Positions 41,048 to 44,958 of a stretch of 51,518 nucleotides of DNA are shown in pieces. Each line of letters starts with the position of its first letter. Position 1 is the stretch's first letter. The notes under the pieces are model-generated. The model was not told where the DNA came from. It did not search any database and saw only the letters and a list, made by a program, of their open reading frames with translations. Origin of the DNA: Pseudomonadota bacterium (GTDB taxonomy: Bacteria; Pseudomonadota; Gammaproteobacteria; Burkholderiales; Rhodocyclaceae); NCBI GenBank assembly GCA_021811225.1, contig JAJZPJ010000001.1, positions 1-51,518 on the forward strand, read 5' to 3'. A program made the translations under genes and the position numbers.

Positions 41048-42468
41048 CGCTCTCGGGCAAACGGGTACTCGTTCTCGGCCTGGGCGAATCCGGGCTGGCG
41101 ATGGCGCGCTGGTGCCAGCGCCAGGGCGCGCGCGTGCGCGTCGCCGACACGCGGCAGGCGCCGCCGGCGCTGGCGCAGCTGCAGGGCAGCGTACCCTCGG
41201 CCCGGTTCGTTCCCGGCGACTTCATCCGCAACCCGGACAAGGCCCTGCTCGAGGGCGTCGATCTGGTCGCGCTCTCGCCCGGGCTCTCGGGCGGCTCCCT
41301 GCTGCTGATCGAAGCGCAAGCCCGCGGCATCCCGGTGCTAGGCGAGATCGAACTGTTCGCGCAGGCGCTGCGCGGCCCGGCCGGGCGCGGCGAGGACCAG
41401 GGACAAAGCCGGGTGATCGCGATCACCGGCACCAACGGCAAGACCACGACCACGGCGCTGACCGCGCACCTGTGCCGCGCCGCGGGCCGGGACGCGGAGG
41501 CCGCCGGCAACATCTCGCCCTCGGCGCTCACCGCGCTGATGGCGCGTCTGGACGAGGGCCGCCTGCCCGACGTGTGGGTGCTGGAACTGTCGAGCTTCCA
41601 GCTGGAGACGACGTCTTCGCTCGACGCCGATGCGGCGACGGTGCTCAACATCAGCGAGGACCACCTCGACCGCTACATCGACCTCGACGACTACGCCAGC
41701 GCCAAGGCGCGCATCTTCCAGGGGAGCGGCGCGCAGGCGCTGAACCGGCAGGATGCCTACGTGCGGAGGATGGCGCTGCCCGGTCGACGGCTCGTGAGCT
41801 TCGGTCTCGACGCGCCGGGAATGAGCGAGGATTTCGGCCTGCGCGTGAAGGGGGGCGAGCCCTGGCTGGTGCAAGGCGAACGCACCCTGCTGGCGCAGTC
41901 GGCGCTGCCCCTCGCCGGTCTGCACAACGCCGCCAACGCGCTGGCGGCCTTGGCGCTGTGCCACGCCATCGGCCTGCCGCTATCCCGGCTGGTCGAAGGC
42001 CTGAAGAGCTTCAAGGGTCTGCCGCACCGCGTCGAGAAGATCGCCGAGCTCGGTCTCGTGAATTATTTCGACGATTCCAAGGGCACCAACGTCGGCGCCA
42101 CGGTCGCGGCGCTCGCCGGACTCGGCGGCGAGAGGGAGGGCGGCAAGATCGTCCTGATCGCGGGCGGCGAGGGCAAGGGTCAGGATTTCACGCCGCTCGC
42201 CGCTGCGGTCAAGCAACACGCCCGGGCCGTGGTGCTGATCGGCCGGGATGCGCCGCTGATGGCGGCGGCGATCGCACCCGCCGGCGTGCCCATCGTCGCT
42301 GCCGCGGACATGGGAGCGGCGGTGCGCGCCGCTGCCGCCGCGGCCCGGCCGGGCGACGCGGTGCTGCTCTCGCCGGCCTGCGCCAGCTTCGACATGTATC
42401 GCAATTACGTCCACCGCGCCGAGGTCTTCGTCGCCGCGGTGAATGCTCTGGCGGGAGCGGCCGCATGA
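41044..42468 (+). CDS. murD: UDP-N-acetylmuramoylalanine--D-glutamate ligase
   Basis: ATGA overlap with mra[23 protein letters not shown]. Confidence 0.95.
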
Positions 42469-43616
42469 TGCGCCAGATGCCCGCCGCGCCCCAGGAGATC
42501 GACGTCTGGCTGCTCTGGTCGGCGCTGTCTCTGCTGTTGTTCGGCCTGGTGATGGTCTATTCGGCGTCGATCGCCACCGCCGAGGCGAGCAAGTTCACCG
42601 GCTATCAGTCGACCTATTTCCTGGTCCGGCACGGGGTGTTCGTGAGCATCGGCCTGATCGTCGGCGCGGTGGTCTTTCAGGTGCCGGTGCGCCTCTGGCA
42701 GCAGATCGCCCCCGGACTGTTCGTCGCCGGCCTGGTGTTGCTCCTGGCGGTGCTGGTGCCGCACCTCGGCCGATCGGTCAATGGCGCCCACCGCTGGCTG
42801 CCGCTGGGACCGGTGAATCTCCAGCCCTCGGAGCTGACCAAGCTCCTGGTGGTGCTCTATGCCGCCGATTACACGACGCGCAAGCTCACCGACATGGACT
42901 CGTTCCGCCGCGGCTTCTTCCCGATGGCGATGGTCATGCTGCTGGTCGGCGGCCTGCTGCTCAAGGAGCCCGACTTCGGCGCCTTCGTGGTGGTCGTCTG
43001 CATCGCCATGGGCATCCTGTTTCTGGGCGGCATCAATATCCGGCTGTTCGCTGCGCTGATGGTGGTGCTGCTGATCGGTTTCGTGGCGCTGATCTGGATC
43101 TCGCCCTACCGCCGCGAGCGCATCTTCGGCTTCATGGATCCCTGGCAGAACGATCTCGGCCGCGGCTACCAGTTGTCCCACGCCCTGATCGCCTTCGGCC
43201 GCGGCGAATGGTTCGGCGTCGGCCTGGGCGCCAGCGTCGAGAAGCTGTTCTATCTGCCCGAGGCGCATACCGACTTCCTGCTCGCGGTCATCGCCGAAGA
43301 GCTCGGCTTCGTCGGCGTCGCCGTGGTGATCGGTCTGTTCGCGCTGATCGTGCAGCGCGCCTTCGTCATCGGCCGCCAGGCGCTGACCCTGGACCGCGTC
43401 TATGCCGGTCTGGTGGCGCAGGGCGTGGGCATCTGGATCGGCATCCAGGCCTTCATCAACATGGGCGTCAATATGGGCTTCCTGCCGACCAAGGGCCTGA
43501 CCCTGCCGCTGATGAGCTACGGCGGCTCCGGCATCGTCGTCAACTGCATCGCGCTGGCCATCCTGCTGCGCGTGGATTATGAAAACAGATTGCTCATGCG
43601 GGGGCAGCCCGCATGA
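42465..43616 (+). CDS. ftsW: peptidoglycan glycosyltransferase FtsW (SEDS family)
   Basis: ATGA overlap with mur[42 protein letters not shown], and the C-terminus [12 protein letters not shown]. Confidence 0.95.
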
Positions 43617-43627
43617 GCAATCTGTTT
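43583..43627. repeat. perfect 20-bp inverted repeat (5-nt loop) spanning the ftsW stop codon
   Basis: AAACAGATTGCTCATGCGGG-GGCAG-CCCGCATGAGCAATCTGTTT, verified base by base. The left arm encodes the last FtsW residues. The right arm begins with the final Pro and Ala codons and the stop, and is otherwise non-coding. Confidence 0.9.
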
Positions 43628-43649
43628 CGGCGCAGGCTAACTTGGCCGC

Positions 43650-43718
43650 GTAGGTCGGACTTCAGTCCGACATGTCCCACGGGACCGCTTATGGTCGTCG
43701 GGCTAAAGCCCGACCTAC
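43650..43718. repeat. REPIN-like inverted pair of REP palindromes
   Basis: GTAG-GTCGGAC-TTCA-GTCCGAC (43650-43671) and GTCGGGC-TAAA-GCCCGAC-CTAC (43697-43718) lie in opposite orientation around a small GTCCC-AC-GGGAC hairpin. Confidence 0.6.
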
Positions 43719-43719
43719 T

Positions 43720-43779
43720 GGAGGCATCGGGCGATGACTAAGACCCTATTGGTCATGGCTGGAGGCACGGGCGGACACA
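43720..43779 (+). repeat. upstream copy of a 60-bp direct duplication of the murG RBS plus codons 1-15 (second copy at 43865-43924)
   Basis: GGAGGCATCGGGCGATGACTAAGACCCTATTGGTCATGGCTGGAGGCACGGGCGGACACA against the copy at 43865 is identical at 57 of 60 positions. All three differences are synonymous third positions. Confidence 0.9.
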
Positions 43780-43886
43780 AATTTGGCTGCGGCCGCGCCA
43801 CGCGCTTAACGTTCGCTACGCTCACATTAGCCTACGCCGAAGATGTGTCCGCACGGAGTTTATCGGAGGCATCGGGCGATGACTAA
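43734..43886 (+). other. 50-codon chimeric upstream ORF (MurG residues 1-15 fused to insert-derived sequence)
   Basis: ATG 43734 has the same GGAGG RBS as murG. It translates to [50 protein letters not shown]. Its TAA (43884-43886) lies 3 nt after the authentic murG ATG (43879). Whether it is translated is unknown. Confidence 0.3.
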
Positions 43887-44958
43887 AACCCTATTGGTCA
43901 TGGCCGGCGGCACGGGCGGACACATCTTTCCCGGGCTGGCGGTGGCCGACTACGTCCGCGAACAGGGCTGGCATGTGGTCTGGCTCGGCAACCCGGCGGG
44001 CATGGAGGCCCGGCTGGTGCCGGCGCGCGGCTACGAGCTGGCGCCGCTCAACTTCGCTGCGCTGCGCGGCAAGGGCCCCCTGAGAAAACTGCTGCTGCCG
44101 TTCAAGCTGGTCTCCGCCCTGTGGCAGGCGCAACGGGCCTTGAGCCGCATCCGGCCCGACGTGGTGCTCGGCATGGGCGGCTTCGTCAGTTTCCCCGGCG
44201 GCTTGATGGCGGCGCTGACGCGGCGGCCGCTGGTGGTGCATGAGCAGAATTCGGTGGCGGGCTTGGCCAACCGCGTCCTGGCGCGCGTCGCCAATCGCGT
44301 TCTGACCGGCTTCCCCGGCACGCTCGGGCGGGCCGAGTGGTGCGGCAATCCGCTGCGCGCCGAGATCGCCGCCCTGGCCGCTCCGGCGCAGCGTTTCAAG
44401 GATAGGGCCGGACCGCTGCGTCTGCTGGTGCTGGGCGGCAGCTTGGGCGCCACGGCGCTGAACGAGACCGTGCCGCGAGCGCTGGCGCTGCTGCCCGAGG
44501 AAGCGCGGCCGCAGGTCGTGCACCAGTCGGGCGAGAGGCACCTCGAAGCGCTGAAGCAGAGCTATGGAGCGGCGGGGGTCAAGGCCGAGTGCGTCGCCTT
44601 CATCGAGGACATGGCCGGCGCCTACGCCTGGGCCGACCTGGTGGTCTGCCGCGCCGGTGCGCTCACCGTCGCCGAGCTGGCGGCCGCCGGCGTCGCCAGC
44701 ATCCTGATCCCCTTTCCGCACGCGGTGGACGATCACCAGAGCGGCAACGCCCGCTTTCTGGCCAATGCCGGCGCCGCCATCCTGCTGCCGCAGGCGGAAC
44801 TGACGCCGGAGCGGCTCTCGCTGATGCGCAATCTGACGCGCGCGCAACTGCTGCAGATGGCCGAGAAGGCGCGCGCCCTGGCCAAGCCCGAAGCCACCGC
44901 GGCCGTGGCCTGGGCCTGCATGGTGTTGGCCAAACGAGAGGTCGGCGATGAAGCATAA
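43879..44958 (+). CDS. murG: UDP-N-acetylglucosamine--N-acetylmuramyl-(pentapeptide) pyrophosphoryl-undecaprenol GlcNAc transferase
   Basis: [23 protein letters not shown] is the canonical MurG N-terminus. The start is Met13 of track ORF 43843..44958. Confidence 0.95.

Follow-up and report, generated by a model that had tools for sequence, protein, structure and literature searches.

Probable footprint of a small mobile repeat at the start of murG in a Rhodocyclaceae cell division cluster, and the short reading frames that tile the insert

The window analysed here is a stretch of 51,518 nucleotides (nt) from a member of the Rhodocyclaceae (assembly GCA_021811225.1, contig JAJZPJ010000001.1, positions 1 to 51,518). 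It includes a division and cell wall (dcw) gene cluster of this Rhodocyclaceae/Sterolibacteriaceae-like genome, in which ftsW (PF01098) and murG (PF03033, PF04101) are neighbours separated by an insert, and in this insert the start of murG is duplicated. We consider it probable, at roughly 65%, that the duplication is the footprint of a mobile repeat and that the short open reading frames (ORFs) tiling the insert, called relay ORFs below, are kept by selection, plausibly passing ribosomes from ftsW to murG.

Positions 43720-43779 and 43865-43924 are identical at 57 of 60 bases, as a preliminary description of this DNA had noted, and direct comparison extends the match to 65 nt at 92% (43720-43784 and 43865-43929), with a period of 145 nt. 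Each copy contains GGAGG, a 9-nt spacer, the ATG and 15 murG codons. The next-longest repeat pair within 1.6 kb is at most 26 nt, which rules out a chance origin. The duplication is genuine and did not arise in assembly. Upstream of murG the window is matched exactly by five other contigs (ENA assemblies, a metagenome-assembled genome (MAG) in GenBank and two k=31 Logan assemblies), and single Logan contigs from three separate mine-drainage runs cover 43594/43615-44100 with 0-1 differences. The preliminary description had raised an assembly artefact as a refutation; the duplication is reproduced in independent assemblies and spanned in three runs.

The three differences between the copies (AAG/AAA, GCT/GCC and GGA/GGC) all lie at third positions and are synonymous, again as described. 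They had been taken as improbable by chance and as a sign that the upstream copy has been translated or derives from a diverged allele. This argument is weak and was rejected as evidence of translation. Changes in the functional copy must be synonymous, and the outgroups L009, L011 and L014 do not polarise the differences. Synonymous changes make up 27.8% of single changes, giving 0.021 for three even if all of them fell in the pseudo-copy.

The ORF that begins at the duplicated ATG, 43734, is open for 50 codons, and its TAA at 43884-43886 falls inside GATGACTAA of the real murG start (ATG 43879); this part of the preliminary description was correct. The stop itself is cheap and expected at this place, because CGATGACTAA at the murG start holds a TGA and a TAA, one stop for each non-murG frame. 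The informative features of the ORF are its start, its openness, the lack of an in-frame fusion with murG and its conservation. This ORF, ORF-B, is preceded by ORF-A (43613-43741), and the 262 bases between ftsW (stop 43614-43616) and murG are fully tiled in the order ftsW-ATGA-ORF-A-ATGACTAA-ORF-B-ATGACTAA-murG. At the junctions of ORF-A, ORF-B and murG the stop and restart codons overlap and a Shine-Dalgarno (SD) sequence lies upstream, which is the geometry of translational coupling. Homologues of ORF-B are found in L009, L011 and L014, and all are open despite periods of 145, 146 and 142 nt. The L009 junction has three relays. ORF-A had been missed in the preliminary description, as had a doublet of repetitive extragenic palindromic (REP) units at 43650-43718, a truncated repeat at 43629-43644 and the membership of the spacer in a repeat family.

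Chains of this kind were compared across relatives, with one genome per species. The strict rule placed each next ATG or GTG between -8 and +3 nt relative to the stop before it. A complete chain is present at 29 of the 32 insert-bearing ftsW-murG junctions in Rhodocyclales. Dinucleotide shuffles of the insert interior give an expectation of 13.4 chains and random 1-2-nt deletions give 8.6. For the 30 loci with an assigned murG start the excess has P = 8e-15, and P = 5e-7 remains when one locus is taken per sequence cluster. The relay ORFs are 15-57 amino acids (aa) long and the chains span several unrelated repeat families. What is conserved across relays is their openness and their connection.

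Other palindromic repeat families are present at ftsW-murG in L030, L038, L040, L070, L072, L075, L077 and L080, and all of these except L077 are tiled by relays. The ftsW/murG overlap is apparently a hot spot at which small mobile repeats insert.

The same arrangement is found between nuoC and nuoD at seven loci (L090, L108, L111, L177, L179, L185 and L196). These contain the first 10-11 nuoD codons, a reverse copy of the repeat, an inverted copy, a new leader and a complete nuoD of 417 aa. Their relay ORFs, of 41-50 aa, start at the duplicated ATG and end -8 to +12 nt from the nuoD start. The frame in which the nuoD relays read the repeat is that of the murG relay (FG[SCY]GR..).

Several observations weigh against selection on the relays. 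Shuffled inserts still carry a chain in about 40% of loci and G+C-rich DNA keeps frames open easily. The loci are phylogenetically non-independent, and clustering leaves 17 of them. The young insertion L106 lacks a relay, as its frame stops in the repeat after 12 codons. L076 and L077 lack any chain and L014 needs a TTG start. The murG gene has its own canonical SD (GGAGG, 9-nt spacing), so that initiation independent of a relay is possible, and the locus is without coverage in three metatranscriptomes of the same study. The ftsW-murG spacer of L076 (2415-2520) is a low-complexity sequence of long G-runs and C-runs with no assignable murG start, and may represent an assembly problem in that MAG.

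Some of these points favour an explanation in which the target duplication is real but the relay ORFs are a meaningless by-product, the duplicated SD and ATG, the G+C-rich insert and the stops at the murG start being sufficient without selection. The 13.4 of 30 loci in which shuffled inserts retain a chain, the TGA and TAA of CGATGACTAA in the two non-murG frames, the absence of a relay in L106 and the strong SD of murG itself are all as such neutrality would have it. We nevertheless regard it as unlikely, since 29 chains are observed where 13.4 or 8.6 are expected, even after clustering. Insert lengths vary widely, with relays of 15-57 aa, and the frame is always kept; the pattern extends to unrelated repeat families and to nuoC-nuoD, and both alleles of one population keep the chain. 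The proposal of the preliminary description that a decoy ORF re-established coupling therefore keeps its place as a probable reading of the sequences, on the chain excess across species, repeat families and nuoC-nuoD, although its synonymous argument was weak.

The DNA between the two murG copies had been described as 85 bp of unrelated sequence. It holds a complete minus-strand copy of a dispersed repeat (43782-43838), with the family pattern 5'-GGYGNAGGC-TAAC..hairpin 1..GTTA-A-hairpin 2-GGCCGNAGCC-AAA. A pattern scan of metagenome contigs, which gives a lower bound, finds the repeat on at least 120 contigs, with about 140 distinct copies, and about one in ten of the matches lies at ftsW-murG. 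Copies are found in either orientation; at ftsW-murG a forward one is present in the cultivable Propionivibrio dicarboxylicus DSM 5885 (L056). In an alignment of 122 copies the repeat forms a three-way junction in which 87% of cells are paired and compensatory changes are plentiful in both hairpins. Covariation reaches a score of 0.302, compared with 0.104 in shuffles (0 of 500 reach it) and at most 0.10 for slid controls. Two stems show C-G/U-G alternation, the loops are often C-GNA-G triloops and a tandem G.A is conserved in one hairpin type. The conserved arms GGCGNAGGC and GGCCGNAGCC pair over only 3+3 bp around an internal loop, and the outer stem is derived from the target.

Rfam 15 yielded no family for the repeat, with E up to 10 for the region and up to 1 for seven other element-rich loci; these searches returned only spurious microRNA matches on palindromes and one transfer RNA (tRNA). 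A literature search with sequence strings of the repeat returned unrelated primers only. Nothing relevant was found in the literature on MITEs (miniature inverted-repeat transposable elements) in Betaproteobacteria or on repeats at ftsW/murG. Among viral contigs there is a single match, and because just one viral contig carries it the repeat is not phage-associated.

The flanks of the repeat carry a characteristic footprint. Enough flank was available for 126 copies, and a flanking direct repeat above the 99% null is present in 63 of them. In 61 of the 126 the target is present again in inverted form directly 5' of the repeat, where it pairs with the upstream target copy. Pairing of this inverted 5' flank mainly with the right flank, as an extension of the outer stem, was considered as an alternative and rejected, as it is seen in only 16. 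For 27 non-tandem copies, duplication lengths range from 22 to 88 nt (median 45); the duplication begins immediately after ..CCAAA, and the bases before its upstream copy are GAAA in 16 and CAAA in 9. All the parts are displayed by the young copy L106, whose duplication extends over 65 nt without a mismatch; after it come 11 nt of filler, 13 nt that repeat the start of the duplication in inverted form, and finally the repeat itself.

The sequence at murG agrees with this family footprint on the minus strand, with GGGAAAGATGTGTCC as the target. Its duplication spans the SD, the ATG and the first 15-16 codons, and in L009 the whole leader as well (78 nt, one mismatch). The inverted copy is ACATCTT, within 43839-43855, and extends a natural GTCCGC/GCGGAC inverted repeat. 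The duplication at murG therefore appears, by comparison of sequences, to be the one that a mobile repeat family makes at its targets.

Tandem arrays of the repeat with its duplicated target, resembling minisatellites, are present in L186 (4 copies, period 104), L203 (3 copies, period 96), L116 (3 copies, period 105), L110 and L176. In L186 the C-terminal codons of FtsW recur in every unit of the array. Copies also lie just upstream of an intact tRNA-Phe(GAA) in L193, L166, L201, L165, L160, L099 and L187, and of an intact tRNA-Ser(CGA) in L163 and L159. The tRNA-associated copies are preceded by a partial duplicate of the tRNA 5'-half that ends at the anticodon-loop GAAA (..CTGAnAA). Their geometry does not fit a simple target-duplication model.

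Alignment of related ftsW-murG junctions, another suggestion of the preliminary description, yields both empty and filled sites. In L010, L012, L013, L017 and L018 ftsW and murG overlap (ATGA or GTGA) with no intergenic DNA, while in about 35 other species the junction contains an insertion of 40-400 nt. The ancestral state is an ATGA overlap of ftsW and murG, and the earlier statement that inserted DNA broke their coupling is borne out by the overlaps in insert-free relatives. L013 and L014, and L018 and L016, form empty and filled pairs. In both pairs the flanking direct repeat is single-copy in the empty site, and the same is true when L001 and a joint in run X3 are compared with the window.

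The reverse repeat insertion is shared, with a homologous leader, by L009, L011 and L014, so that it is older than the split of these species. Within species the two copies are nearly identical (63/64 in L011, 77/78 in L009, 57/60 in the window), for which we infer gene conversion. In L014 the upstream copy lies directly against ftsW, as the native start does in the empty L013, whereas the functional copy (MTKTLL.., with its leader) resembles the lineage of the window. This suggests homologous recombination as a further route by which the cassette can move between species.

We propose that a non-coding mobile repeat of about 57 nt inserted on the minus strand at a GAAA, 16-17 codons into murG. 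It would have arrived with a direct target duplication of about 60-80 nt, comprising the leader, SD, ATG and 15 codons, and with a short inverted copy near its 5' end. The essential murG would have survived the insertion because the long duplication left a complete murG start in the proximal copy. An earlier forward repeat at the end of ftsW and a later REP doublet would have supplied the rest of the 262-bp spacer.

Four features come together in the footprint. The target is GAAA, the A-rich end of the element lies flush against the duplication, the duplication varies in length with occasional filler, and the inverted copy stops precisely at the boundary of the duplication. As in short interspersed nuclear elements (SINEs), the duplication varies in length and an A-rich 3' end, here ..CCAAA, lies against an A-rich target. 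One may speculate that such a footprint arises by target-primed synthesis in which the displaced strand snaps back, or when a break whose end is capped by the repeat is repaired. It is possible, though we hold this only tentatively, that the repeat represents a new class of bacterial non-autonomous mobile element whose insertion is unlike that of known MITEs and REPs, with GAAA targeting, a long variable duplication and a fold-back target copy, host selection then adding relay ORFs. If so, the long duplication would allow the element to settle among the first or the last codons of genes that are essential (murG, ftsW, nuoD and the genes for tRNA-Phe and tRNA-Ser) while the host survives.

The preliminary description had offered a second origin for the duplication, a recombination scar whose upstream copy derives from a diverged murG allele. 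Such an allele would have been brought in through homologous or site-specific recombination, leaving an attL/attR-like remnant of an integrative element. The synonymous differences in the window and the differing resemblances of the two copies in L014 are in keeping with it. We consider such a scar improbable, given that the duplication is typical of the mobile repeat family. The copies are separated by 85-200 bp of non-coding repeat DNA with no coding capacity for an integrase, in contrast to attL/attR remnants. Duplications occur family-wide at many unrelated targets, are species-specific and are perfect in young copies. Copies within a species are also more alike than orthologous copies, as the values for L011 and L009 given above show.

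A second footprint of the same family is probably present at the end of ftsW. A perfect palindrome there consists of a target and its inverted copy, and the inverted arm encodes the last two FtsW codons together with the stop, and also the ATG at which ORF-A starts. A new ATGA, joining the ftsW stop to the start of ORF-A, arises because TCAT and ATGA are reverse complements, CTCATG (Leu-Met) becoming CATGAG on inversion. Palindromes of the same design with species-specific sequences are found in L015, L016, L061, L186 and others. The palindrome is followed by a truncated forward repeat, and L001 and L009 retain a full forward copy at this position. From these sequences the end of ftsW seems once to have held a full forward copy, of which the palindrome would be the footprint.

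The remaining part of the spacer is the REP doublet, which lies directly ahead of the SD in the upstream murG copy; ORF-A reads straight through it. It consists of two inverted short palindromic units, as is typical of REP/REPIN sequences, and is repeated elsewhere, L011 (85-150) having a matching REP unit at the equivalent place. No further copy of the unit is present within the 51-kb window. The REP doublet is a later insertion into the leader of the upstream murG copy.

A second allele without 201 nt (43643-43843) is represented by contig L001 and by a joint, 43642 to 43844, in run X3, with a TG microhomology. This short allele has no REP doublet, upstream murG copy or reverse repeat, and it has an extra full forward repeat and a 51-nt duplicate of the end of ftsW. 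Its junction in L001 is spanned by a single 56-aa relay with ATGA at each end, so both alleles keep an unbroken chain. As the shorter allele coexists with that of the window, the insertion varies inside a natural mine-drainage population. The coexistence of the two alleles accounts for the breaks in contigs L004 and L005, which lie 35 nt upstream of murG.

The relay ORFs show no conservation at the peptide level, and the idea of a peptide conserved among them was rejected since the reading frames differ between species; L001 and L047 do not read the forward repeat in the same frame. ORF-B is nonetheless conserved in four species with a similar peptide over the part encoded by the repeat, and the frame FG[SCY]GR.. 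is shared with nuoD, as might be expected if ORF-B, and ORF-A with it, encoded functional micropeptides or a signal-sensing regulatory leader peptide that tunes murG. This is very improbable. The peptide similarity follows from conservation of the repeat at the nucleotide level, forward copies are read in differing frames, relays over other repeat families share no sequence, and the C-termini change with the period (ending ..SGDD or ..GGTAP before the stop). Selection probably maintains the relay ORFs for the act of translation and not for their peptides.

The predicted messenger RNA (mRNA) structure is strong over 43575-43940 (z = -7.45). The AUG of murG is paired in a predicted 8-bp hairpin, AUGACUAA/UUGGUCAU, formed between the start codon and codons 6-8. 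This hairpin is predicted in both duplication copies (43879-43903 and 43734-43758), and at murG it lies inside a predicted domain closed by pairing of 43840-43855 with 43913-43928. Ribosomes that end translation of ftsW may reinitiate on ORF-A and then on ORF-B, and would terminate on the murG start. Relay translation would melt the RNA structure around this start and allow reinitiation. It would also keep the mRNA covered, leaving Rho no long untranslated stretch upstream of the essential genes from murG through ftsZ. Short ORFs that solely deliver ribosomes have been proposed in a 2025 review (PMC12548453).

That the locus is instead a collapsed or chimeric join of strain variants can be dismissed: the breaks in L004 and L005 and the fragmentation of run X3 at this place point that way, but the breaks are accounted for by the deletion allele, six independent assemblies made with various assemblers and k values have an identical sequence, the whole region lies on single Logan contigs in three runs, and three other species show the same architecture.

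The features of the ftsW-murG region are listed in Table 1.

Table 1. Coordinates of genes, repeats and relay ORFs at the ftsW-murG junction of the window.
Feature	Position	Strand	Remarks
ftsW	42465..43616	+	PF01098 on the identical gene in L001-L003; final codons (..QPA) and stop encoded by palindrome loop and right arm
Perfect 20-bp palindrome with 5-nt loop	43583..43627	+	target (ftsW codons NRLLMRG) and inverted copy
Relay ORF-A (42 aa)	43613..43741	+	ATG overlaps ftsW stop (ATGA); TAA 5 nt past first base of ORF-B ATG (ATGACTAA); homologous ORF in L011
TTTC and first 16 nt (GGCGCAGGCTAACTTG) of forward three-way-junction repeat	43625..43644	+	truncated second copy
REP doublet (REPIN-like)	43650..43718	.	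two inverted 22-nt palindromic units GTAGGTCGGnCTTnAGnCCGAC
Upstream copy X of murG SD, ATG and first 15 codons	43720..43781	+	distal copy of the putative target duplication
Relay ORF-B (50 aa)	43734..43886	+	from duplicated murG ATG through the repeat; stop in ATGACTAA of murG
Complete repeat copy, about 57 nt	43782..43838	-	GGCGTAGGC-TAA..hairpin 1..TTAA-hairpin 2-GGCCGCAGCC-AAA
Inverted copy of murG codons 12-17 (GAAGATGTGTCCGCACG)	43839..43855	+	can pair with 43768-43787 or 43913-43928
Leader of functional murG copy	43856..43878	+	SD GGAGG 43865-43869; homologous in L009, L011, L014 and L001
murG	43879..44958	+	359 aa; PF03033, PF04101; proximal duplication copy X' at 43865-43924

Downstream of murG the cluster is still tightly coupled. 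The ATG of murC (44948) lies 11 nt inside the end of murG, and murB and ddl follow with TGATG/GTGA overlaps. The preliminary description had counted seven ATGA junctions in the cluster, which is roughly right; we count six (36953, 38467, 41047, 42468, 43616 and 48990) together with overlaps of the TGATG type.

The closest known analogue appears to be the mycobacterial interspersed repetitive unit (MIRU). Both are short, dispersed and apparently mobile repeats between operon genes, both form tandem arrays (here in L186, L203 and L116), and in both the flanking operon genes are co-oriented and the ends of an ORF overlap the neighbouring stop and start. To our knowledge the present repeat has no sequence relation to MIRUs. 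MIRUs insert at start codons, and the ORF across a MIRU overlaps the neighbouring start with a spacing of -4, which may allow insertion with little effect on expression (PMC12548453). The MIRU has its own ORF, fixed and in one orientation, whereas the present repeat is found in both orientations and read in differing frames, and the start and stop codons of its relays come from the duplicated target and not from the element. The relay pattern here also covers unrelated repeats at the same junction, and the hosts are Betaproteobacteria instead of mycobacteria.

Long variable target duplications are known from other elements. IS1549 and IS1634 generate duplications of 8-514 bp for which there is no model (PMC2266710), and restriction-modification units also show long duplications of variable length (PMC2853133). 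As in the present family, these direct repeats are tens to hundreds of bp long, are single in the empty site and vary in length from copy to copy, and their mechanism is unexplained. Those elements are kb-sized and encode proteins, whereas the repeat described here is a structured non-coding sequence of 57 nt. The inverted target copy and the A-rich junction at GAAA are unreported for the known cases.

REP/REPIN sequences and MITEs resemble the present repeat in being small, non-autonomous, structured and G+C-rich, and in lying within operon genes or between them. A REP is a simple hairpin and has no target duplication, in contrast to a three-way junction with a duplication of 22-88 nt. In MITEs the terminal inverted repeats are conserved and the duplication is short and constant in length, whereas here the outer stem is derived from the target and the duplication is variable.

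Rickettsia palindromic elements (RPEs) are small palindromic repeats that insert into genes with the reading frame kept open, and they become part of the host protein. The present repeat differs in being read only by separate short ORFs, and the host proteins are intact because the gene end is duplicated. Termination-reinitiation coupling is a further known system with the same stop/start overlap (ATGA, ATGACTAA) and an SD upstream of the restart codon. The arrangement at murG differs from the proposed delivery ORFs in that two are placed in series and were created by mobile DNA, and the dependence of murG on them is putative.

The relay principle is thus already known from MIRUs. What appears to be new is the element family, its footprint, the serial relays made from duplicated gene ends and their conservation across repeat families and operons. 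The footprint is unexplained by known bacterial transposition chemistry and gives a handle on the insertion mechanism. For annotation, hypothetical proteins of 40-50 codons between operon genes may be relays and not genes. Coupling has so far been studied mostly gene by gene, and the chains at 29 of 32 junctions, over several repeat families and two operons, would provide comparative evidence at the scale of populations for selection on the continuity of translation between cistrons. They suggest that mobile DNA can settle in tightly packed essential operons where a long duplication restores the interrupted end of the gene and short ORFs in series prevent ribosomes from leaving the message.

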